From contig VBAI01000011.1 of assembly GCA_005882295.1 (NCBI GenBank), forward strand, positions 1,592 to 65,591: a DNA stretch of 64,000 bases. Reading direction: 5' to 3'. This stretch comes from Candidatus Segetimicrobium genomatis (lineage in GTDB: Bacteria; Sysuimicrobiota; Sysuimicrobiia; Sysuimicrobiales; Kaftiobacteriaceae). The translations under genes were made by a program, and so were the position numbers. Position 1 is the first letter of the stretch; every line of letters starts with the position of its first letter. Positions 3,885 through 42,254 of this stretch are shown piece after piece. The notes beneath the pieces are model-generated. The model was not told where the DNA came from. It made no database searches and was given only the letters and a program-made list of their open reading frames with translations.

Positions 3885-4601
3885 CTATGCTGAGGCGGCG
3901 GCATACCCGGATGCCGCGCGCAGGAGATCCTCGCGCGCGACAGCCCCCAGCGTCAGATCGAACACCTCGGCAAACCTGCGTGCATACGCCAGCCGGACCT
4001 CGTCGACAGGCAGGGGCCGTCCGAGCAGGCGGGCCATCGACGTGACGGGGCGTCCGATCCCGCAGGGATTGATGTAGTCGAAGGGCGCGAGATCAGGACC
4101 GACATTGAGGGCGAACCCGTGCATGGTCACCTTGCGTTTGACGGCGACCCCGACCGCTGCGATCTTCTCATGGCCGGCCCAGACGCCAGGAAAACCCCGC
4201 AGCCGCTGCGCGGCGAGGCCGAAATCCTGCAGCGTGCGGAGGATGGTCTCCTCCAGCGACCGCACGTACTTCACGACGTCCTCGTTGTAGGCGCGCAGGT
4301 CCAGGATGGGATAGCCCACCAGCTGGCCCGGCCCGTGGTAGGTCACACTGCCTCCGCGCTCAATGTCATAAACTTCGAACCCCTTGCCGGTAAGAAACTC
4401 GCGCGGGACCAGCAGATGGTCGGCCCGGGCGGAGCGGCCGATCGTGAATACCGGCTCGTGCTCCAGCAGGATGAGCCCGTCCGCCAGCTCTTCCCGTTGC
4501 CGCGCCCCGATCAGAGCCTTTTGCAGCGCCCAGGCATCGGCATAGGGCGTAGGACCCTCGCGGAGATTGAGGAGCCAACCCTTTCGAGACATCACCGCCA
4601 T
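3885..4601 (-). CDS. lipB: Lipoyl(octanoyl) transferase
   Basis: Motifs LEHEPVFTIGR, HGFALNV, NPCGI. 238 aa. Confidence 0.85.
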   Translation of the reverse strand: MAVMSRKGWLLNLREGPTPYADAWALQKALIGARQREELADGLILLEHEPVFTIGRSARADHLLVPREFLTGKGFEVYDIERGGSVTYHGPGQLVGYPILDLRAYNEDVVKYVRSLEETILRTLQDFGLAAQRLRGFPGVWAGHEKIAAVGVAVKRKVTMHGFALNVGPDLAPFDYINPCGIGRPVTSMARLLGRPLPVDEVRLAYARRFAEVFDLTLGAVAREDLLRAASGYAAASA

Positions 4602-5634: not shown

Positions 5635-5847
5635 CTAGTCTCGGAACAGTGGAACGAGCGTGAGAATCACAGCGATGGCAGCAGTGATCCACAGGCGGAC
5701 GATTGTCGGCCGGGACCGGAAGCGGCGGCGGTACACGGCATAGAATGAGTAACCCAGTGAGAGGACTGTGAACGCCAGCAGATACGGCCTCGCCGACTCA
5801 AAGAAGACCTGCAGTGCAGCGCCTCCTAACCCGAGGAGGCTCGCCAC
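5635..5847 (-). CDS. Small hypothetical membrane protein (70 aa, two predicted TM helices)
   Basis: Hydrophobic ORF between the Nif3-like gene and the FTR1 permease gene. No recognisable family. Confidence 0.3.
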   Translation of the reverse strand: MASLLGLGGAALQVFFESARPYLLAFTVLSLGYSFYAVYRRRFRSRPTIVRLWITAAIAVILTLVPLFRD

Positions 5848-5924
5848 CGGCGCGATCAGTCATCACCCGGACGCCAGCAGACTGAGGGCCAGCGATCTCA
5901 AGTCCAGTCCGTGAGCGGTACGCA

Positions 5925-30600: not shown

Positions 30601-33107
30601 AGCGGGCCGCCGCCCTCCTTGCGTCCCTCGGCGCCCCCGGCGACGGGGGCCAGGGCCGTCACCCGCACCCGCGTCAACGGCTCAGTCAGATCGACCAGCG
30701 CATTGGCGGGCGCGGCATCAAAACCCCGCGGCAGGAAGACCTGGCCCGGGAGGACGGCCGGTGAGAGCTTCGCCCGCACCGCCACCGACCCGCGGCGCGA
30801 TCGCACCACCGTGGCGTCGCCTTCACCGATCCCGCATCGCGCGGCGTCCTCGGGGTGAAACAGCGCCCAGGGCTCGCCGGCCAGGTCGGCGATCGCCGTG
30901 CTGCGCGAGGTCATCGCGCCCCGGTCGAACAGGACGTCCCCGAGCACGAGGATGAGGGGAAAGTCGGTGTCGGCGCCGTCGACAGGTCGGGCTTCTTGGA
31001 TCCTCGATCCCGGATCCTGGATCCTGGATCCCTGTCGCGGTACCCGGGCATCGATCTCCAGTCCGGGGATGAGAGATCGCATCTCGTCGAAGATTTCCTC
31101 CCAGCCGCTGTACGCGATCACCTTGCCCATCCGCTCGGCGAGCGCCGCGAAGATCCCCCAATCGGCCCGCGACTCACCAGGACCCGGGACGGCCGCGCGC
31201 AATCGCTGGACGCGGCCCTCGATGTTGCACACCGTGCCGTCTTTCTCCGGCGCCACCAGCGCCGGCAGCACCACATCGGCCATCTGCGCGGTCTGTGTCA
31301 GAAACGCGTCCTGGACCACCAGAAATGGCAGCCGCCCCCGCGCCTCAGTCCACCGCGTGCGGTCAGGGGCGTCGGTCCCCGGATCGGCGCCGGCCACGTA
31401 AAGGACGTCCAGCCTGCCCTGCCCTGCGGCCTCGATGATCTCCGGCGCGTTCCATCCCGCAGCGTCGCTCGGGGCAGCGCCCCAGAGCGACTCGAGATCG
31501 TGCCTGACCTCCGCCAGCGGGCGGCCACCGGGACCGGCATCAGGCAGCAGTCCGGCCAGCGCCGCCCCGAATGCGTTCCCTTTGCCGCGCATGACGTTCA
31601 CGGAGGTGTGGAGCCTGGCCGCGAGCTCACGCAGGAGCCCGTAGATCTCGGCGCCGTCAGGGGCGTCGAGCGCCCCGCGGCCGATGAGAATCTGCGGTCG
31701 TGCGGCGCGGGCCAGGCGCGCGCCCGCCGCGGTTATCGCGTCCCGGAGCACGCCGCCGGTCTCCCCCGCACCGTTTGGGGCGCCGGACATCGCCTCCAGC
31801 AATGCGCGCACTACCTGCGCGCCAGATCCGTAGCGGTGCACCAGGTGGTGGGCAATGAACCGATCAATCTCCAGCCCTTTCGGGGTGACGGCGATCATCG
31901 CCGCGCCGCGATCGAGCGCCCGCTTCATCCGCAGCCAGATGACCGGATACTCCTCGGTGATATCGCACCCCACAAGGACGATCACATCGGCGTCATTCAT
32001 GTCCGCAAGAGAGGATGTCATTCCCCACGGCGCGAGCAGGCTGGCGCCTCCCGGCGGCGCGTCGGTGCGGTGATCCAGGTGATTCGTGCCAACCACGCTG
32101 CGGAAGAACCGCCCGGCCACGTAGGCGTCCTCGTTGGCCAGGCGCGTCCCGCCGAGCATCGCCACCCGGCCCGGAGCGGCGGCACGCAGCCGGCGCGCCA
32201 CGACGTCCAGCGCTTCGTCCCACGTGGCTTCGCCCAACCCGCCCCCGCGGCGGATCAGCGGGGTGCGCAGGCGATCCTGGTGGTGCACGTAGGTGTGACC
32301 GAAAAATCCGAGGTCGCACAGCCAGATGTCGTTCACGGCCGGGGATTCGCGCGCGCGGGTGCGGGTGATGGCGCCGTCGCGCACATCGAACTCCAGGGCG
32401 CAGCCGACGCCGCACAGCGTGCACACGCTGGCCACCGGCTGATTGTCCCATGGCCGGGCGGCGAACCGATACGTCTTGGCCGTCAGCGCGCCCACGGGGC
32501 AGATGGCGATGGTGTTGCCGATAAACTTCGACTTCACCGGCAAAGTGAACGGCGTGTTTACCTCGCTGTGGAATCCCCGCTCAAACCCTTTCAACGCGTC
32601 GTCGCCGGCGATCAGCTCGCCGAACCGCACGCACCGCCAGCACAGGATGCACCGCTCCCGATCGAGCACCAGCACACGGCCCAGGGAGACCGGCTTGGCG
32701 AAGTCGCGTTTGGTCTCGACGAAGCGGCTGCGGCCGGGGCCGTACTGATAGGCCTGGTCCTGCAGCGGGCATTCGCCGCCCTTGTCGCAGATGGGACAGT
32801 CCAGCGGATGATTGATGAGCAAGAACTCCAGGATGGCTTCCTGTCCGGCTTTGACTTCGGGGGTGGTCGTGAAGACGGTCATGCCATCTGTCGCCTCCAG
32901 GGTGCAGGAGGTCTGGAGTTTCGGCATTTTTTCGACCTTGACCAGACACATCCGGCACGCCCCCAGCGGGGGCATGCGGTCGTGGTAGCAGAAGATGGGG
33001 ATCTCGATGCCGGACCGCCGGGCGGCGTTGTAGACGGTCGTCCCCTTCGGCACGGAGACCGTCCGCCCGTCGATGGTCAGCGTGATCGTTGGTGGAAGCT
33101 GGCTCAT
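30597..33107 (-). CDS. nuoG: NADH-quinone oxidoreductase subunit G (75 kDa Fe-S/molybdopterin-like)
   Basis: Start MSQLPPTITLTIDG at 33107; the ORF-track start at 33206 runs through repeat I. N-terminal 2Fe-2S and 4Fe-4S cysteine clusters. Contains an in-frame oligomer-repeat insert at 30998-31034. Confidence 0.9.
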   Translation of the reverse strand: MSQLPPTITLTIDGRTVSVPKGTTVYNAARRSGIEIPIFCYHDRMPPLGACRMCLVKVEKMPKLQTSCTLEATDGMTVFTTTPEVKAGQEAILEFLLINHPLDCPICDKGGECPLQDQAYQYGPGRSRFVETKRDFAKPVSLGRVLVLDRERCILCWRCVRFGELIAGDDALKGFERGFHSEVNTPFTLPVKSKFIGNTIAICPVGALTAKTYRFAARPWDNQPVASVCTLCGVGCALEFDVRDGAITRTRARESPAVNDIWLCDLGFFGHTYVHHQDRLRTPLIRRGGGLGEATWDEALDVVARRLRAAAPGRVAMLGGTRLANEDAYVAGRFFRSVVGTNHLDHRTDAPPGGASLLAPWGMTSSLADMNDADVIVLVGCDITEEYPVIWLRMKRALDRGAAMIAVTPKGLEIDRFIAHHLVHRYGSGAQVVRALLEAMSGAPNGAGETGGVLRDAITAAGARLARAARPQILIGRGALDAPDGAEIYGLLRELAARLHTSVNVMRGKGNAFGAALAGLLPDAGPGGRPLAEVRHDLESLWGAAPSDAAGWNAPEIIEAAGQGRLDVLYVAGADPGTDAPDRTRWTEARGRLPFLVVQDAFLTQTAQMADVVLPALVAPEKDGTVCNIEGRVQRLRAAVPGPGESRADWGIFAALAERMGKVIAYSGWEEIFDEMRSLIPGLEIDARVPRQGSRIQDPGSRIQEARPVDGADTDFPLILVLGDVLFDRGAMTSRSTAIADLAGEPWALFHPEDAARCGIGEGDATVVRSRRGSVAVRAKLSPAVLPGQVFLPRGFDAAPANALVDLTEPLTRVRVTALAPVAGGAEGRKEGGGPL
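30998..31034. repeat. In-frame tandem GGATCCTG-type repeat inside nuoG (encodes DPGSRIQDPGSRIQ)
   Basis: ggatcctcgatcccggatcctggatcctggatccctg. Confidence 0.7.
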
Positions 33108-33118
33108 AGATTCTCCGA

Positions 33119-33191
33119 TGTCATCGCGAGCGCAGCGAAGCGATCTCCTTGGACGAGGAGATTGCTTCGTCGCTTCGCTCCTCGCAATGAC
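33119..33191. repeat. Hairpin element family I (between nuoEF and nuoG)
   Basis: gtcatcgcgagcgcagcgaagcgatctccttggacgaggagattgcttcgtcgcttcgctcctcgcaatgac, an almost perfect palindrome. Confidence 0.85.
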
Positions 33192-33206
33192 AGAAAAGTC
33201 CTTCAA

Positions 33207-35015
33207 TCACGCCAATGCCTCAACATCACAGCGCCCTGTCTTGACATGGTGTTCATACTCCTGGCGGAAGAAACGCAAGGTCGAATAGATCGTGGGAGGC
33301 ACGCTCTCGCCCAGCGGGCAGAAACAGGTCCCCGTCATCCCCCGCGCGATGCCATCCAGCAGCGGCAGGTCCTCCACCCGCCCGCGGCCGGCCAGGATGC
33401 GGTGCAACGCCTCCCCCAACCACATCGTCCCTTCGCGGCAGGGCGTGCACTTGCCGCACGACTCGTCGCGGTAGAACTCCACGGTGCGCGAAGCGACCTC
33501 CAGCATGCAGGTGGTGTCGTCCATCACGATCAGCGCGCCCGACCCCAGCATCGATCCGTAGACATCGAGTTTGGCCAGCGCGTCGTAATCCATCGGCGTG
33601 TCCAGGTAGGCGGCGGGCAAGACGGCCGATGACGACCCGCCGGGAAAGCACGCCTTGAACGACCGGCCGGCACGCATCCCTCCAGCCCGGTCGATCACCT
33701 GCCGGATGGTGGTCCCCAGCGGCACCTCATACACGCCAGGATGCGCCACGTGTCCGCTGACGGAGATGAGAACCGGGGGCCCTTGCTGGCGGTACCACTC
33801 GGCACCCTTGGCGAGAATCCACGCCACGTGACACAGCGTCTCGACGTTGTTGACCACCGTGGGCTGCATGTACAGACCCTTGACCGCGGGGTAGTAGGGC
33901 GGCTTCAAGCGCGGCATCGCCCGGCGGCCCTCAAGCGACTCCAGCAGCGCGGTCTCTTCGCCGGCGATGTACGCGCCGGCGCCGGTGCCCAGCACGATGG
34001 TGAGATCGTACCCGCTGCCGGCAATGTTACGGCCCACCAGCCCCGCGGCAGTGGCCTGCGCCAGCACCCGGTCCAGCAGCGCCCGCGCCCGGTAGAACTC
34101 CCGCCGCAGGTAAACAAACGCCAGGTGCGCGCCGACGGCGTAGCTAGCGATGACGATTCCCTCGATGAGCCGGTGCGGGTCGCTTTCCAGCAGCGTGCGA
34201 TCTTTGAAGGTCCCGGGCTCGCCTTCGTCGGCGTTGATGACGACGTATTTGGTGACCGCGGGATCTTTGGGGATAAACTTCCACTTGCGCCCGGTGGCGA
34301 ACCCGGCGCCGCCGCGACCCCGCAGGCCGGATTTGTCCACCTCGTCGATCACGGCCTCCGGCGACATGGACAGCGCCCGCCGCAGCCCCGCGTAGCCCCC
34401 GCGCGCGGTATATGCCTCCAACTCGCCCTGATCCGGTTCGTGGAGATACTTGAGCAGAACAGGCTCGCCCGAAGAAGATTGTTGGGCCTCGGGCTTCGGG
34501 CTTTGCTGAACTACCGGGCTCCGGGCTTCGGGCCCTGGGCTTCGGTAGCGGCTGAGAATTTCACCGATGCTCTCTGGGGTAACCAGGCCGAACCGCTCAG
34601 TGCCCACCATCACGGCCGGCGCAGCCTCGCACGCGGCGAGACATTCCGCCGTCTTGAGGGTGAACGCGCCGTCCGGGGTCGTCTCCCCCACCTCGACTCC
34701 GAGTTGCCGCCGCAGCTGGTCGAGGATCCGGCCGCAGCCGTTGAGCATGCAGGCGATATTCGTGCAGACCTGCACGAGGTGCCGGCCGACCGGGCGGAAG
34801 AAGAGGAGATGGTAGAACGATGCCACCGAGGCGACCTCGCTGACCGGCAGGTCCATCACCGCCGCGAGGTCGGCCAGCGCATCGGCGGTCAGGTACCCCG
34901 CCTCGTCTTGCGCCACAAACAATGCCCCCAGCAGCGCCGACTGGCGGTGCGGAAACTGCGCCATCAGACGGCGGATCTCCACTTTTGCGTTTTCGGAGAG
35001 ACCGTTCTCGCTCAT
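33207..35015 (-). CDS. nuoEF: Fused NADH-quinone oxidoreductase subunits E (24 kDa, 2Fe-2S) and F (51 kDa, FMN/NADH-binding, 4Fe-4S)
   Basis: NuoE-like N-terminal ~160 aa (...CTNIACMLNGCGRIL...ECLAACEAAPA). Then a Pro/Gln/Ser linker. Then NuoF (GLRGRGGAGFATGRKW, SGYDLTIVLGTGAGAYIAGEETALLESLEG, CGKCTPCREG). The linker DNA is an oligomer-repeat hairpin (34486-34546). Confidence 0.85.
   Translation of the reverse strand: MSENGLSENAKVEIRRLMAQFPHRQSALLGALFVAQDEAGYLTADALADLAAVMDLPVSEVASVASFYHLLFFRPVGRHLVQVCTNIACMLNGCGRILDQLRRQLGVEVGETTPDGAFTLKTAECLAACEAAPAVMVGTERFGLVTPESIGEILSRYRSPGPEARSPVVQQSPKPEAQQSSSGEPVLLKYLHEPDQGELEAYTARGGYAGLRRALSMSPEAVIDEVDKSGLRGRGGAGFATGRKWKFIPKDPAVTKYVVINADEGEPGTFKDRTLLESDPHRLIEGIVIASYAVGAHLAFVYLRREFYRARALLDRVLAQATAAGLVGRNIAGSGYDLTIVLGTGAGAYIAGEETALLESLEGRRAMPRLKPPYYPAVKGLYMQPTVVNNVETLCHVAWILAKGAEWYRQQGPPVLISVSGHVAHPGVYEVPLGTTIRQVIDRAGGMRAGRSFKACFPGGSSSAVLPAAYLDTPMDYDALAKLDVYGSMLGSGALIVMDDTTCMLEVASRTVEFYRDESCGKCTPCREGTMWLGEALHRILAGRGRVEDLPLLDGIARGMTGTCFCPLGESVPPTIYSTLRFFRQEYEHHVKTGRCDVEALA
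34486..34546. repeat. GGGCTTCGGGC-type repeat hairpin forming the in-frame nuoE-nuoF linker
   Basis: cgcccgaagaag...ggcctcgggcttcgggctttgctgaactaccgggctccgggcttcgggccctgggcttcgg. Related oligomer at 41287-41314 (intergenic). Confidence 0.65.
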
Positions 35016-35023
35016 ATGCGAAG

Positions 35024-35105
35024 GGCGGGACTGGGGACTGGGGACTGGAGACTGGACATAACGGTGGCCCCACCAGTCCCTAGTCCCAAGTCCCTAGTCC
35101 CGTAG
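35024..35105. repeat. Hairpin element family A (between nuoD and nuoEF)
   Basis: gcgggactggggactggggactggagactgg ... ccagtccctagtcccaagtccctagtcccg. Confidence 0.85.
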
Positions 35106-35109
35106 TTCG

Positions 35110-36285
35110 TCATCGATCCACGTCTCCCAACACGATGTCGATCGAGGCAATCGCCACCACCACATCGCCCACGGTGCCGCGGTGGAGCATCACCGGAAGC
35201 GCCTGGAGATTGTTGAACGACGCGGAGCGCACCCGAACCCGGACCGGGCGGTTGCTGCCGTCGCTGACGATGTAGTAGCCTTTCTCTCCCCGCGGAGATT
35301 CGACCGCGGCGTAGACCTCGCCCGCCGGCGGGTGGATCCCCTCGCTGACCAGTTTGAACTGGTGGATCACCGCCTCCATGCTGCGCACCAGCTCCCGCCG
35401 CGGAGGCAGCGCGACCTTCCGGTCGTCCACGAGCACGGGGCCGCCGGGCAGCCCCTGCAACGCCTGCAGGATGATCCGCCTGCTCTGCCGCATCTCCTCC
35501 ATCCGCACCCGGTACCGATCAAACGCATCCCCGTTGGTCCCCAGCGGGACGTCGAACGAGTAGTCGGCGTAGCCGCCGTATGGAAACGCCTTGCGCACGT
35601 CATAGGACACACCCGACCCGCGCAGCACCGGCCCGGTGCACCCATAGCGGATGGCGTCCTCGGCGCTGAGCACCGCCACGCCCTCCGTGCGCTTGCGCCA
35701 GATGAGATTGTCCGTCAACAACGCCTCGTACTCGTCCAGCCGGCGGGGAACGTCTTCGAGGTATCTCTGCACACGCTCCGCAAAGCCCTCCGGCAGGTCC
35801 CACTGCAGCCCGCCGATCCGGAAGTACCCGTGCATCATCCGCTGTCCGGAGACCATCTCAAAGATGTCGAGGATCTCCTCCCGATCGCGGAAGCAGTACA
35901 TCAGCAGGCTGGTGACGTTGAGATCGATCGCCGCCGTGCCCAGATAGACGAGATGGCTGGCGATGCGCGAGAGTTCCGCCAGGATGAGCCGGATGACTTC
36001 GGCGCGCTTGGGCGCCGTGATGCCGAGCAGTTTTTCGACGGCCAGGACGTAGGCCTGCTCCTCGATGAACGTGGCCAGGTATTCAATGCGCGGGGGAAAG
36101 ACGATGTTCTGATGGTAGGTGCGGGTCTCCATCTCCTTCTCAAACCCGGTATGCAGGTACCCGATCACAGGCTCGACGCCGAGGATGACCTCGCCCTCCA
36201 GTTCCAGGATCAGCCGCAGCACCCCATGGGTGGCGGGGTGTTGCGGGCCCATGTTGAGGACGAGCGTCTCCTTCGTCAGCTGGCT
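35110..36285 (-). CDS. nuoD: NADH-quinone oxidoreductase subunit D (49 kDa)
   Basis: MSQLTKETLVLNMGPQHPATHGVLRL... The ORF-track start at 36327 is possible but less likely. Confidence 0.9.
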   Translation of the reverse strand, partial: SQLTKETLVLNMGPQHPATHGVLRLILELEGEVILGVEPVIGYLHTGFEKEMETRTYHQNIVFPPRIEYLATFIEEQAYVLAVEKLLGITAPKRAEVIRLILAELSRIASHLVYLGTAAIDLNVTSLLMYCFRDREEILDIFEMVSGQRMMHGYFRIGGLQWDLPEGFAERVQRYLEDVPRRLDEYEALLTDNLIWRKRTEGVAVLSAEDAIRYGCTGPVLRGSGVSYDVRKAFPYGGYADYSFDVPLGTNGDAFDRYRVRMEEMRQSRRIILQALQGLPGGPVLVDDRKVALPPRRELVRSMEAVIHQFKLVSEGIHPPAGEVYAAVESPRGEKGYYIVSDGSNRPVRVRVRSASFNNLQALPVMLHRGTVGDVVVAIASIDIVLGDVDR

Positions 36286-36353: not shown

Positions 36354-36868
36354 CTATGCGTGTCTCGGCTTTGACGTCGGGATGATCTGGCTGGGAACTT
36401 TCGGCGTGTGGCCCCGAAACTCGACAGGCTCTTCAACCAGCGGGTAATCCTTGCGCAGCGGATGGCCCTCCCAGTCGTCTGGCATCAGGATGCGCCGCAG
36501 GTCGGGATGGCCGTCAAACCGGATGCCAAACAGGTCGAAGACCTCCCGTTCCAGCCAGTTGGCCCCCGGCCATAACGAGGTGGCCGACGGCGCGGTCTGG
36601 TCGGCGGCGAGGTGCACCATAAGCCGGACCCGGGCGGGTGGCTCGACCGAGGTCAGCAGGTACACGACATCGAATCGCGGCTGCGCGGGATGGCGGTCCA
36701 CTGCCGTCAGGTCGGTCAGCAGACGAAACCCCATATCGCGCGCGGCCTCCAGCGCCTGCAGGATGCGCTCACGGGCGACGACGAGGGTCACCTCGTCCCG
36801 GAAGCGGATCTGTCCGACAACGGCCTCCCCCAGCCGCTGGACCAGGACGTCTTCGGGGCGGGTCATCG
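36354..36868 (-). CDS. nuoC: NADH-quinone oxidoreductase subunit C (30 kDa)
   Basis: Start [16 protein letters not shown] at 36868. The ORF-track N-terminal extension is rejected. Confidence 0.85.
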
Positions 36869-37408
36869 CCTCCTCCGGCCTGGCTGCGCGATGAGTTCCT
36901 GCAACTTCAGGAAGCCATAGAGCAAGGCCTCCGGTCGGGGTGGGCACCCTGCAACATAAACGTCCACGGGAATGAGCTTGTCCACGCCCTGCACCAGCGC
37001 GTAGTTGTTGAACACCCCGCCGCAACTGGCGCAGTCCCCCATCGCAATGACCCACTTCGGATCCAGCATCTGCTCATAGATGTGCTTGACCACCGGCGCC
37101 ATCTTTTGCGAGACCCGGCCGGAGACGATCATGAGATCGGCCTGGCGGGGCGAGGCGCGGAACGCTTCGCTGCCGAACCGCGCGATGTCAAAGCGGGCCT
37201 GAGCGGTGGCAATCATTTCGATCGCGCAGCAGGCCAGGCCAAACTGCGCCGGCCACAGCGAGTTCCGCCGGGCCCATGACACCACTCGATCCACCGTCGT
37301 TGTGAGGATGTTGCTTTCCAGGGCCCGGAGATCGGCCTCGGTCGCCTCTGCCGGCGACCGCGCGCGAGAGACCAGGGTGCCGCGCTCTGGCGGAGGTGTC
37401 ACTGCCAT
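36863..37408 (-). CDS. nuoB: NADH-quinone oxidoreductase subunit B (20 kDa, 4Fe-4S)
   Basis: [19 protein letters not shown], and GCPPRPE motifs. Start MAVTPPPE at 37408. Confidence 0.9.
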
Positions 37409-37779
37409 TCCAGCGCCCCTCGCTTCCAGGCGTAGAGGAAGCCCAGTCCAAGCACGGCGACAAACGCCAGCATCTCGACCAGGCCATAGACCTTCAGCTC
37501 CCGGGCCACGACGGCCCACGGGTACAAGAACACCGCCTCCACCTCGAAGAGCAGAAAGAGCATCGCAATAAGGTAGTAGCGGATGGGGACCCGCTCGCGG
37601 GCGGAGCCGATCGGCCATACCCCGGATTCATAGGGCTCGGCCTGCCCCGGCAGCGGGCGGCGCGCGCCACCGGCGCGCGCGGAACGCCATCCGCCGACGA
37701 GTGCGTGCGCCGTGAGGAGAACAGCCGTAAGCGCCACGGCAAGCGCAAAATGCACAAAGACGGGGATGTAGTCTGTCAC
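37399..37779 (-). CDS. nuoA: NADH-quinone oxidoreductase subunit A
   Basis: GTG start at 37779 with an AGGAGCG RBS 14 nt upstream. FESG-like ...[12 protein letters not shown]... and the 3-TM pattern. Confidence 0.8.
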
Positions 37780-37840
37780 GAGTGAATGCTCCGCGCTCCT
37801 ACGTACACACGGTTCGCCGCGCGGGGGGCCATCTCCCGGT

Positions 37841-39040
37841 CTATCGCCCGCTCCGCTGCGCAGCACGCTGCGGCACGGCGCGGCGCGGACGGCCTGCTGA
37901 GGCGGCGCGCAGATTCTCGATGACCTCAGGGACGACCGTCAGCAATTGATCAACGTCCTCGTCCGTATTCCAGCGTCCCAGGGTCAGGCGGATGGTGCCG
38001 GCCGCGATCTCCGGCGGCAGGCCGATGGCACTGAGCACGTGGGAGGGTTCCAGGCTGCCCGAGGTGCAGGCCGACCCGCTGCTCGCGGCCACACCCTGAA
38101 AGTCGAGCGCCAGCAGGATGGATTCGCTGTCGGCTCCTTCAAACGAAAGGTTCACGTTCCCGGGCAACCGCTCGACGGGATGCCCATTCAGGTGCGCGCC
38201 GTCGAGGCGGACGAGCCCCTGGATGAGGCGGTCCCGCAGCCGGCGCAGGCGGACCGCTTCCTCGTGCATGCACTCCATGGCGATGCGGATCGCCACCCCA
38301 AATCCTACGATCGCCGGCACGTTCTCCGTCCCCGCCCGGCGGTTGCGCTCATGCGATCCGCCATGCTGGATGCGCGCCACGTTGGATCCCTTGCGAACGT
38401 ACAGCGCGCCGACGCCCTTGGGGCCATAGCGCTTGTGCGCCGACATCGACAGCAGGTCGACGCTCAGCGCGTCCACGTGAACCGGGAGCAGGCCCACCGA
38501 TTGTGTGGCGTCGGTATGCATCAGAATTCCGCCCTCACGCGCGAGACGGCCAATCTCGGCCACGGGCTCCAGCGTACCGATCTCATTGTTAGCGTGCATC
38601 ACGGAGATCAGCACGGTGTCGGGGCGAATGGCCGCGCGCACGTCGTCCGGATCCACGCGGCCATCACGGTCCACGGGAAGGTATGTCACATCAAATCCAC
38701 GGGACTGTAAGAACCGAAGGGGTTCCAGCACCGCGTGGTGCTCAACCGGCGAAGCGATGAGATGCCGGCCCCGCGCCTCGTTCGCCCACGCCGCCCCGAG
38801 CACGGCAAAGTTATCCGCCTCGGTGGCGCCGCTGGTAAATACGATTTCGGCCGGGCTCGCCCCGAGGGCCGACGCGATCACCTCGCGCGACCGGTCCACT
38901 GCCGCCCGCGCGTCTTGCCCGAACTGGTGGATGCTGCTGGCGTTGCCGAACTGCTCGGTGAAGAACGGCAGCATCGCCTCCACCACTCGCGGGTCGGTGG
39001 GCGTGGTGGCGCCGTGATCGACGTATATGCGCGTATCCAT
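37841..39040 (-). CDS. iscS: Cysteine desulfurase (IscS/NifS family)
   Basis: [15 protein letters not shown]-terminus, [15 protein letters not shown]-lysine, and SGSACTSGS active-site cysteine loop. Confidence 0.85.
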
Positions 39041-40975: not shown

Positions 40976-41318
40976 CCCACCTTTTGACAACTCCGAGGCG
41001 CCTCCTATGGGCACGGTGAAAGCACGGTACCTGGTACCCGGACGAGAGGCGAACGACCGGTCGGCGCAGGCCCTGGGGCCATATCCCCAAATTATCCACA
41101 AGATGTTGATATCTGAGGCAGGAGTTTGCCACCTGGCGGGGAATAAGCGTAAGGACCTGCAGGGGGGAGGAGCCTTCGAGTCTGCTCTTGGACGCCTCCA
41201 CGACAGGCTCCCCACTAGGCAACGCATGGACACCACTCCTCCTTCGCCCGCACCTCCTCCCTGAGGTCGCTTTATCTTCACAGACGGGCATCGGGCTTCG
41301 GGCTCCGGCCTCGACAGA

Positions 41319-42254
41319 ATGTGTGGCTTCATGATCGAGTACCTGCCGTTCGACAAGCGCGTCCCTGATACCCAATACCGTGATCTGCTCCTGCGCATCC
41401 TCACCACCGGCGAAGAGGTCCCGACCGAGCACGGCGTCTCGGCCCTGAAAGTCATCGGCCACGCCATGCGGTTCCCGCTGGCAAACGGGTTCCCTGTCGT
41501 GACCGAGCGCGACGTCGCCCGCGAACCTAAGAACGGGAGACGTCCATCGCTCTTCCACCAGGCCCTCGGCGAGTTGTGCGCTTTTCTCAACGGCGCACAC
41601 ACTCAACAGGACCTGGAGCAATTTGGCTGCTACTGGTGGGACCCCTGGGTCACCGCGGAACACTGCGAGAAGTTTGGTCTTCCCCCCGGGGATCTCGGGC
41701 CGGGGTCATACGGTGCGGCATTTCGGAGATTCCCCACTGCGGAAGGCACGCCGTTTGACCAGTTGCGGCACCTCATCGAGCAGGTCAAGGAACGGCCCGA
41801 TGCCCGGCATCACGAGCTCTCGCCGTGGATTCCGCAGTACGTGCTGACCGGGCACGAGGGCGGCCGGCGGGTGGTGGTGCCGCCCTGCCACGGCTGGGTG
41901 CACGTGCACGTGAACTCGCGTACCCGGACGCTGACCCTCACCCATCGCCAGCGCAGCGCGGACGCGCCAGTGGGCCTGGTTTTCAACCTGATCCACTATG
42001 CGGCGCTGACACTCATGATCGCCCAGGTCACCGGCTATCGGGCCAACGAGCTCGTCTATTGGATCGACGACGCGCACATCTATCTCAATCAGCTCGAGGA
42101 TGTGCGGGTGATGCTGGCCACGGAGCCGCAGCGTTTGCCGACGGTGACCCTGGACCCGGCGATCGCTGATCTGTTTGCCTTCCGGGCTCAGCACTTCGCG
42201 GTCCGGGATTACCACCCGCGACTGCCCCGCCGGCGCATTGCCACCCCGGTCTGA
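41319..42254 (+). CDS. Thymidylate synthase (ThyA) family protein, divergent
   Basis: Collinear with E. coli ThyA: GHAMRFPLANGFPVVTER ~ GHQMRFNLQDGFPLVTTK; VVPPCHGWVHVHV ~ ALAPCHAFFQFYV (catalytic Cys); FNLIHYAALTLMIAQ ~ FNIASYALLVHMMAQ; DAHIYLNQ ~ DTHLYSNH. The RR-x-I-x-SAWNP motif is altered to ARHHELSPWIP. Confidence 0.65.
   Translation: MCGFMIEYLPFDKRVPDTQYRDLLLRILTTGEEVPTEHGVSALKVIGHAMRFPLANGFPVVTERDVAREPKNGRRPSLFHQALGELCAFLNGAHTQQDLEQFGCYWWDPWVTAEHCEKFGLPPGDLGPGSYGAAFRRFPTAEGTPFDQLRHLIEQVKERPDARHHELSPWIPQYVLTGHEGGRRVVVPPCHGWVHVHVNSRTRTLTLTHRQRSADAPVGLVFNLIHYAALTLMIAQVTGYRANELVYWIDDAHIYLNQLEDVRVMLATEPQRLPTVTLDPAIADLFAFRAQHFAVRDYHPRLPRRRIATPV

Follow-up and report, generated by a model that had tools for sequence, protein, structure and literature searches.

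Tandem heptanucleotide arrays and a nuoE-nuoF gene fusion in the complex I operon of Candidatus Segetimicrobium genomatis

We have analysed a stretch of 64,000 nt from Candidatus Segetimicrobium genomatis (assembly GCA_005882295.1, contig VBAI01000011.1, positions 1,592 to 65,591, hereafter the window) and focussed on the boundary between nuoE and nuoF, two genes of respiratory complex I. Here both lie in a single open reading frame (ORF) of 602 amino acids plus stop on the minus strand (33207..35015), running from an ATG to the stop, in which a complete NuoE is followed by a complete NuoF. This is a genuine, in-frame fusion giving one predicted polypeptide of ca. 66 kDa. The segment that joins the two modules consists of translated GAAGCCC-type heptanucleotide arrays and is not adapted protein sequence. 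Comparison with related genomes suggests that the old nuoE stop codon was probably bypassed by a change of frame at one of these arrays and not deleted by an inserted element. An earlier examination of the letters and ORFs of the window, made without database searches (the sequence-only reading), had already described the 602-aa ORF with NuoE followed by NuoF, which the ORF list, Pfam and NCBIfam bear out, and the linker peptide that it quoted matches the translation.

The fused gene and its operon

The NuoE module (aa 1-157; 34545..35015, minus strand) ends in ..ILSRY and matches the Pfam domain 2Fe-2S_thioredx (PF01257, aa 15-157, E = 7e-44). The NuoF module (aa 183-602; 33210..34469, minus strand) begins with GEPVLLKYLHEPDQ and contains the Complex1_51K, SLBB and NADH_4Fe-4S domains (PF01512, PF10531 and PF10589, aa 226-590). 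The 25 residues in between, RSPGPEARSPVVQQSPKPEAQQSSS (aa 158-182; 34470..34544, minus strand), have a high content of Pro, Ser, Glu, Ala and Gln and no domain match in Pfam or NCBIfam. The NCBIfam equivalog models for NuoE and NuoF cover aa 6-160 and aa 187-595, respectively. Scores for NuoE were above the curated threshold of PF01257 (149.6 bits against a cut-off of 24.8) and above the cut-offs of TIGR01958 (148.5 against 142.4) and NF005722 (144.5 against 141). Those for NuoF exceeded the cut-offs of PF01512 (148.3), PF10531 (42.5), PF10589 (96.7) and NF010120 (411.4 against 389); TIGR01959 scored 523.5 on this module, under its cut-off of 558.65. The four ligands of the [2Fe-2S] cluster N1a (C84, C89, C125 and C129), the motifs for flavin mononucleotide (FMN) and NADH (G233-F239 and N261-R273) and the cysteines of cluster N3 (C520, C523, C526 and C566) are invariant across 28 aligned fused homologues. 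The polypeptide is predicted to carry the entire flavoprotein portion of the NADH-oxidising module, with the N1a [2Fe-2S] cluster of NuoE plus the FMN and the N3 [4Fe-4S] cluster of NuoF.

The fused gene sits between nuoD and nuoG in a co-oriented nuoA-B-C-D-[EF]-G-H-I-J-K-L operon (Pfam), a complete and syntenic nuo cluster of respiratory complex I (type I NADH dehydrogenase, NDH-1).

The linker DNA

Tandem Repeats Finder (TRF) detected arrays of period 7 at 34484-34503 and at 34514-34545. From TRF, a repeat finder and an alignment in register with five related junctions (L009, L011, L021, L091 and L160, in our numbering), the first array is formed by four heptamers, GAAGCCC AGGGCCC GAAGCCC GGAGCCC (34516..34543, minus strand). 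The plus strand at 34516-34545 reads GGGCTCC GGGCTTC GGGCCCT GGGCTTC GG and, as a sequence motif, fits the G-quadruplex pattern G3N4 x4. The second array, AAAGCCC GAAGCCC GAGGCCC (34484-34504, minus strand), lies within a segment of ca. 36 nt (34471..34506, minus strand) that consists of this array plus AACAATCTTCTTC and that, judged against the junctions of L091, L021 and L009, occupies the place at which relatives carry the T of the nuoF ATG. On the coding strand the complete junction is TAC C, GAAGCCC AGGGCCC GAAGCCC GGAGCCC, GG TAG TTCAGC, AAAGCCC GAAGCCC GAGGCCC, AACAATCTTCTTCG, GGC GAG CCT. A (GAAGCCC)n repeat has no stop in any frame, and every frame encodes E-A-R-S-P-K-P, the motif that the linker peptide carries (..SPGPEARSP..SPKPEAQ..). 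Tryptic peptides predicted to span the linker are SPGPEAR and SPVVQQSPKPEAQQSSSGEPVLLK.

In the sequence-only reading the linker DNA was a hairpin akin to the intergenic elements of the window. Its repetitive nature stands, as the period-7 arrays demonstrate, but the hairpin does not. Both arrays have the same orientation, unlike the inverted arrays of the intergenic elements, and the only complementarity in the linker is one pair of 8-nt arms, GCCCGAAG/CTTCGGGC (34467-34474 / 34494-34501, together 34467..34501, minus strand), which was also the sole inverted match given by the repeat finder and the right arm of which is partly made of native NuoF codons. Within the window GCCCGAAG is not enriched (6 found against 4.9 expected). 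The 96-nt linker folded as RNA gives -38.9 kcal/mol (z = -2.8). For the putative hairpin of 46 nt z is -1.8, which is not significant, with 11 out of 200 shuffles folding as well, in contrast to the intergenic elements at 35018-35110 (z = -5.3) and 33105-33200 (z = -5.9). On the array orientation, the single 8-nt pair and the folds against shuffles we have rejected the hairpin. A related copy had been placed at 41287-41314, and an intergenic array of the same unit family does exist there (41285..41308, plus strand; GGGCATC GGGCTTC GGGCTCC, or CGGGCTT x3.4 by TRF), 11 nt upstream of a plus-strand ATG at 41319; however, it is a lone array that forms no hairpin either (fold of 41275-41325, z = +0.4). 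A simple internal duplication of 32 nt, at which a repeat family hinted, was dropped because the non-repeat parts mismatch.

The nuoE/nuoF junction in related genomes

Junctions were gathered from genome contigs of 185,579 species, from metagenome contigs and from exact-protein look-ups, and were classed by frame and stop codons. The relatives include "Ca. Calidihabitans tengchongensis" and metagenome-assembled genomes (MAGs) labelled "Armatimonadetes bacterium", and the organism of the window is a relative of the Segetimicrobiaceae, in the phylum Sysuimicrobiota (CSP1-3). In the closest orthologues (L001, L003, L004, L086, L087 and L092, with NuoF 90% identical) nuoE and nuoF are separate genes, and the junction reads ..SRYRRATRSMT* TAA CGT ATG GGC GAG CCC; the window is 45 nt longer there. 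Unfused orthologues begin NuoF as M-G-E-P-V-L-L at the position where the NuoF module of the window starts. The view that NuoE and NuoF are normally separate therefore holds for the nearest relatives, but fusions are also found in other lineages of Sysuimicrobiota, with unrelated linkers, and in NC10 bacteria.

The arrays themselves are not restricted to fused genes. In the separate-gene relatives L009/L089, L011, L021 and L091, exactly four heptamers form the coding 3' tail of nuoE, up to the stop, and are followed by G(G/T)TAG (L009, L091) or GTAG (L011, L021), 2-3 nt and the nuoF ATG. The junction is TAC AGC, GAAGTCC GAGGTCC GGGACCC GGAGCCC, GT TAG TTC ATG in L091; TAT GCC, GAACCCC GACGCCC GACGCCC GAGGCCC, GG TAG TCG ATG in L009; GGA C, GAAGCCC x3 GAGGCCC, G TAG GT ATG in L011; and CAC C, GGACCCC GGACGCC GAACCCC GGACCCC, G TAG TT ATG in L021. 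The fused L160 has four units as well. A search with the NuoE module retrieved 120 clusters of stand-alone NuoE, 16 of which have array-coded tails (8 ending in ..PEAR* or ..GAR*, 4 in ..PRTP* or ..PRGR*, and 4 partial versions). That one 28-nt array is read in two frames across lineages speaks for its being kept as DNA or RNA and not for the sake of the peptide. In both L011 and L021 the frame of nuoF stays open across the whole array upstream of it, so that a change of one nucleotide or one unit would fuse the genes. We also checked whether GGGTAG follows these arrays everywhere, at the flanks of all GRRSCCC-type arrays of near-clade loci, and this is not general: GTAG follows the arrays of nuoE junctions and a single array in the nuoG of L021.

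Arrays of the same family bracket nuoF in L011. One is the (GAAGCCC)x4 of the nuoE tail (4473-4500), and the nuoF-nuoG spacer (5797-5872) holds an imperfect inverted pair, GGGCTTC-type x4 / (GATGCCC)x4, just before nuoG. This pair is followed by GTCAGTT.., resembling the GT(T)AGTT found after the nuoE array.

On a neighbour-joining tree of 76 near-clade NuoF proteins, Fitch parsimony counts 7 changes between the fused and the separate state (5-8 over 200 bootstrap replicates, and 7 in 173 of these). In 90% of the replicates the window group and the separate P0121/P0023 group come out as sisters. All basal lineages of the clade have separate genes, and junctions with an array turn up both in several deep branches and in the window lineage and L160. 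Among the fused lineages the linkers are unrelated in length and sequence, and the group of L006/L008 keeps the NuoF ATG in frame (..QASM-ILRY). Judging from these trees the junction is a repeat-bearing hotspot, at which the clade has gone from one state to the other a minimum of 5-8 times, the event in the window being one among several in the phylum that were independent of each other.

The six closest orthologues have the junction CCCGG-TCG-ATG-ACA-TAA-CGT-ATG, which resembles that of L009 minus the TAG. In this sister group the old nuoF ATG looks like the codon that now gives the Met in the NuoE tail (..RSMT*), with a new stop and a new ATG 9 nt downstream. If this reading of the junction holds, the sister group would represent a fusion followed by a re-fission within 12 nt.

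A bypassed stop or an inserted segment

Directly after the four-unit array of the window there is still a GGTAG. Its TAG (34511..34513, minus strand), which we take for the former stop of nuoE, is now out of frame (..CCG GTA GTT..). Read in the other frame, the window gives ..EAQGPKPGAR*, near the real NuoE tail of L091, SEVRGPGPGAR*. At the DNA level GGAGCCCGGTAGTTCA of the window matches GGAGCCCGTTAGTTCA(TG) of L091, and GGTAGTTCA is kept after the fourth unit, with GGAGCCCGTTAGTTCATG as the counterpart in L091. As in L011 and L021, nuoE of the window enters the array a single nucleotide past the Tyr codon, and as in L009 the array has GG-TAG after it; it is this combination that puts the TAG out of frame.

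The sequence of events may be reconstructed as follows. By a difference of 1-2 nt from its relatives, nuoE would have come to enter the array in a phase mismatched to the TAG, and the stop would be read through as Pro-Val-Val. The former nuoF ATG would have been overwritten by the ca. 36 nt that hold the second array, the sum keeping NuoF in frame. Two paths are arithmetically consistent with this. One would be the gain of 1 nt at the boundary of array and stop in an L021-like junction, giving an in-frame ..PVVM-PEP.. fusion that later underwent an in-frame expansion of 36 nt. The other would combine a loss of 2 nt where nuoE enters the array with a net insertion of 35 nt. The choice between the two, the order of the mutational steps and their exact nature are matters of inference. 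A further frame-preserving step would be the gain of three units (21 nt) in a 609-aa variant of the protein, which has the ca. 36-nt segment in common with the 602-aa form.

The sequence-only reading had instead suggested that insertion or expansion of an intergenic repeat removed the nuoE stop and fused the genes. Part of this agrees with our results, since the linker is repeat-derived and its second array, the ca. 36 nt at the ATG, looks like an insertion. However, the stop was not removed, as it still follows the array, and what would have been an incoming intergenic element is already the coding tail of nuoE in the array-bearing separate-gene relatives described above. Taken literally, the proposal is that a new repeat-bearing segment replaced the stop, spacer and ATG of a non-repetitive junction, fusing the genes in one step. 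We consider this unlikely, but it has arguments in its favour besides the second array. The nearest separate orthologues have nothing but the short ..RRATRSMT* TAA CGT ATG, the tail RQAPRSQT* shared within the subclade suggests an ancestor with no array, and the presence of the same array family at 41285-41308, in nuoG linkers and in the nuoF-nuoG spacer of L011 gives the impression that arrays spread. Against it, the first array of the window shares its position, its length of four units, its end unit types (GAA.., ..GAGG/GGAG) and the G(G)TAG with five separate-gene lineages, and the element is not a hairpin. The CCCGG---TCGATGACA of the sister group aligns with the CCCGGTAGTCGATGGCA of L009 minus three bases, which supports the descent of both from an array-plus-TAG junction. 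Furthermore, the tails FEAPGPRPEAR, SQAPGPRP and RQAPRSQT look like a decay series. From these alignments we favour, with good probability, descent of the window junction from one that already bore an array, and regard re-insertion as a rather improbable second choice.

Several observations weigh against the bypass of a stop in an inherited array. All separate forms in the subclade of the window share the non-repetitive tail RQAPRSQT*/RRATRSMT*, so that the intact array of the window needs either array decay there or re-acquisition here. The GTAG after the nuoG array of L021 means that the TAG could be a feature of array ends and not the relic of a stop. The trees are neighbour-joining only, and ambiguous gene calls were set aside. 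Finally, in one near-identical strain, the MAG contig L083 (GCA_005884525.1, VBAJ01000188.1), with otherwise the same linker DNA, a TGA replaces the CGA right after ..SRY (L083 2414-2416, corresponding to 34542-34544 of the window) and nuoE terminates there. What remains is an in-frame repeat "spacer" of 84 nt and a nuoF with no canonical start, for which the annotators chose a CTG. The TGA may be a true nonsense polymorphism or an error of the consensus; if it is real, the fused frame is not universal in the population.

One polypeptide or two

An AlphaFold model of the 602-aa product (28-sequence alignment) reached a predicted template modelling score (pTM) of 0.87, with residues 162-181 below 50 in the predicted local distance difference test (pLDDT), and the linker is thus predicted to be a disordered, flexible tether. 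A Foldseek search against the PDB gave full-length matches to single chains (7xqw_B, 8j83_B and 5xfa_A; TMq 0.75-0.76 over 580-593 columns), covering both the NuoE-like and the NuoF-like module, whereas the alignment of complex I NuoF chains, for instance 8e9h_F, is limited to ca. 420 columns. The model places the NuoE and NuoF modules in a heterodimer-like mutual arrangement within one chain, and the full-length matches to single-chain subunits imply that the fusion is structurally unproblematic. By analogy with these subunits, the most likely effect of the fusion would be the obligatory 1:1 co-synthesis and co-assembly of NuoE and NuoF, as in HoxF and the beta subunit of formate dehydrogenase (FDH).

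We doubt that two proteins are still made, with NuoF produced by internal initiation (at CTG, aa 187, or TTG, aa 199) or by proteolysis of the linker, which would deprive the fusion of any functional effect. A disordered linker would be accessible to proteases, the fused L006/L008 lineage does retain its NuoF ATG in the linker, and the L083 gene with the TGA, for which the annotators called a CTG start, would need initiation of exactly this kind to survive. In the window, however, there is no in-frame ATG, GTG or TTG from aa 158 until the TTG at aa 199, no Shine-Dalgarno-like motif was found upstream of either the CTG or the TTG, and single-chain subunits of the NuoE-NuoF type function as such in solved enzymes.

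Age and recurrence of the fusion

A different history would be that the fusion is old, ancestral to the subclade of the window, with the separate relatives as secondary fissions and the linker of the window as a fast-evolving descendant. The count of events is on its side, as the locus tree needs 3 fissions against 5 independent fusions in that subclade, and fused forms are numerous. We nonetheless find it very unlikely. The separate forms share a homologous tail and the position of the stop (RQAPRSQT*/RRATRSMT*), which independent fissions would not have recreated, and the linkers are unrelated, one lineage retaining the ATG and another the out-of-frame TAG.

The fused frame is found in many independent assemblies. 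The identical 602-aa sequence is present in the protein database, and the same 90% cluster lists eight further 602-aa variants, which together account for no fewer than 53 contigs of JGI, ENA and NCBI origin (P0125 on 21, P0126 on 15 and P0127 on 7, among others), with members named "Candidatus Segetimicrobium genomatis" or "Bacillati bacterium ANGP1". Within this cluster the linker has point variants (SPGPEA/SAGPEA and SSSGEP/SSPGEP) that keep the frame, and the independent contig L097 has the linker DNA of the window except for one substitution. The 609-aa variant (L084, L085 and L137) is longer by exactly 21 nt, its first array having seven heptamer units and not four. More than 20 additional fused clusters, of 73-81% identity, come from related MAGs.

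Along with this in-frame gain of three units and the nonsense substitution of L083, a possible out-of-frame deletion is known from a protein fragment only. P0136 (216 aa, with no contig on record) reads ..YRSPKPEAQSP and then runs on in the N-terminus of NuoF, translated out of frame. Such a sequence would result if ca. 53 nt were lost between units of the first and second arrays in a gene of the 609-aa type, and it originated either by array-mediated deletion or by assembly collapse.

The sequence-only reading had asked for a frameshift or assembly error to be excluded, and the idea that a slipped or collapsed heptamer wrongly joins two separate genes, which the error-prone nature of repeats, the stop in L083 and the resemblance of P0136 to an out-of-frame deletion between arrays might encourage, is essentially refuted by the cluster membership and the independent contigs (samples, assemblers and sources differ and the frame does not), by the frame-keeping variants, by the fused orthologous clusters and by the lack of a start codon in NuoF, with which separate expression would be impossible.

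Comparison with known fusions and repeats

Subunit gene fusion, single-chain proteins of the NuoEF type and four-unit heptamer repeats are all already known, and this is not a new kind of enzyme. The fused NuoE-NuoF architecture is amply represented, both in databases and among solved non-respiratory enzymes. HoxF of the NAD+-reducing [NiFe] hydrogenase from Hydrogenophilus thermoluteolus (5xfa_A) is also one chain, with a thioredoxin-like [2Fe-2S] domain followed by an FMN/NADH/[4Fe-4S] module, and the beta subunit of FDH1 from Methylorubrum extorquens (7xqw_B, 8j83_B) has the same single-chain domain order as the nuoEF product. These proteins, 31-34% identical, belong to soluble hydrogenase or formate dehydrogenase complexes, whereas nuoEF is part of an operon for the membrane-bound complex I. 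Its neighbours are nuoD and nuoG-L and not hydrogenase or formate dehydrogenase catalytic genes, and for the linkers of HoxF and FDH beta no origin from repeats is known. Another fused homologue, more distant (P0076, L165), does stand in an FDH/FolD context, beside formate dehydrogenase genes.

The closest parallel within a nuo cluster is a fused gene of the NC10 or Methylomirabilis type (599 aa, L164), labelled NuoF at NCBI, with the same Pfam architecture in a nuoA-[EF]-G-H-J-K cluster. It differs in being an independent lineage (48% identical), with a non-repetitive linker (..GEFPKEYKYQATAAPPSNRERTSGE..) and a rearranged operon. In this NC10 MAG (GCA_044345325.1) the fused nuoEF comes directly after nuoA, with no nuoB, C and D between, and ahead of the cluster stand two genes for antiporter-like subunits and the genes for ATP synthase subunits a and c, an unusual arrangement for complex I.

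A comparative paper on complex I describes only the fusions NuoCD and NuoBCD (PMC4758237). In these fusions of E. coli and other proteobacteria, likewise, adjacent subunits that contact each other in complex I have been joined, but they belong to the Q module and not to the N module, and no repeat-derived linker has been described for them. Among the listed literature matches to terms for a nuoE-nuoF fusion, the fused terms matched only in a paper on ciliate hydrogenosomes (PMC6993867), and no NuoE-NuoF fusion in a bacterial complex I was evident in that listing. Two genome papers on CSP1-3 (Sysuimicrobiota) mention neither nuo genes nor tandem repeats, and the name "Segetimicrobium" had no literature match. 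The family Segetimicrobiaceae of this phylum is abundant in soil (PMC11604079).

As for the repeats, the nearest kind are the G-rich heptameric simple sequence repeats (SSRs) described by Rehm et al. (2015), GGGNATC in Xanthomonas and GGGGA(C/T)T in Nostoc, with which we group the heptamers of the cyanobacterial short tandemly repeated repetitive (STRR) sequences. The repeats of Rehm et al. have a strong preference for four units, matching the four G-tracts of a quadruplex, and lie in antisense between ORFs of the same direction, where they touch or overlap the stop or are at most 50 bp upstream of the next ORF (PMC4692102). The array at the end of nuoE is like them in its 7-nt unit with G3, its four units, its position at a stop codon and its variation in copy number. 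The antisense position at the stop codon and within 50 bp of the next gene holds in the separate-gene relatives, and in the window the site is now inside the fused ORF. Our array differs from these heptamers in its unit (GGGCTTC), in belonging to another phylum and in being translated, as a tail of NuoE or as a linker. There is also a likeness to phase-variable contingency loci, where a repeat with a unit that is not a multiple of 3 lies in or at the end of an ORF and changes in unit number shift the frame. Rapid on/off switching is not in evidence here. The change observed within the species, +3 units, is neutral for the frame, and the effect seen is evolutionary fusion or fission and not regulation.

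Other repeats in the window

Nearly every gene boundary in the window has an inverted pair of short tandem arrays, which form very stable hairpins. The units are of 7, 8 or 9 nt, with ca. 4 copies per arm, and their sequence varies by site; a shared architecture with unrelated unit sequences is unusual. Such pairs lie at 766-808/830-873, 2650-2682/2694-2734, 4610-4656/4705-4731, 11176-11206/11227-11260, 16687-16727/16751-16791, 17608-17633/17679-17716, 22994-23020/23051-23084, 35027-35055/35075-35106, 44999-45039/45095-45133, 51497-51521/51537-51568 and 62061-62094/62209-62242. The one between nuoD and nuoE (35018..35110, minus strand) is made of AGTCCCT x4.4 / GGGACTG x4.1 by TRF and folds at -55.1 kcal/mol. 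The nuoF-nuoG spacer (33105..33200, minus strand) is filled by a long, near-perfect hairpin of a different repeat (..GTCATTGCGAGGAGCGAAGCGACGAAGCAATCTCC.., -47 kcal/mol), so that the mechanically called nuoG ORF extends upstream as MKDFSVIARSEATKQSPRPRRSLRCARDDIGES; the true start of nuoG is likely MSQLPPT. The nuoB ORF (36863-37618, 251 aa, with its Pfam domain only at aa 130-239) overlaps the nuoA ORF (37399-37866) by ca. 220 nt. Translation of nuoB probably starts inside this ORF, and the long stretches added at the N-termini of nuoB and nuoC are artefacts of ORF calling in GC-rich sequence.

Within nuoG (minus strand, 30997-31031) an in-frame (TGGATCC)x5 array encodes ..GSRIQDPGSRIQ.. within a hypervariable linker between the molybdopterin and the C-terminal domains. 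In relatives the nuoG linker has peptides of GAAGCCC-type arrays (FEARGPKPEARVE in L012, FDARGPTPEARVA in L009 and GARSPEPEARPAG in L005). By its sequence, this is a second repeat-seeded linker in the same operon.

Implications

For the annotation of these genomes, the consequence is that calls of a missing NuoE are artefacts of the fusion. Databases label the fused protein simply "NuoF". To complex I the present case adds a natural single-chain NuoEF in a bona fide nuo operon, which becomes a 13-gene operon by fusion of E and F and not of C and D, and this fused gene occurs in an abundant uncultivated phylum of soil bacteria and in NC10. The tethered flavoprotein module could be a handy scaffold for expressing the NADH-oxidising module.

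It is tempting to speculate, although we put it forward only tentatively, that in the four-unit array of 28 nt between nuoE and nuoF it is the nucleic acid and not the peptide that is conserved, and that the array could act as an evolutionary "frame adaptor". The array is used in two frames (..PEAR* and ..PRTP*), its antisense strand fits the four-tract quadruplex motif, and its last unit provides GGAG or GAGG just upstream of the nuoF ATG. If the idea is true, an array open in all frames that abuts both a stop and a start would make fusion or fission a matter of one step, which would explain the minimum of 5-8 switches found in the clade. Should it generalise, heptamer SSRs open in all frames would offer a way, not recognised so far, by which genes fuse and linkers are born in these bacteria. 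For genome evolution at large, the nuoE/nuoF junction is an unusually readable case of a tandem repeat at a gene boundary turning a stop codon into linker sequence: the old stop is visible out of frame, a variant with three more units exists within the species, and the fused and separate states change across relatives.

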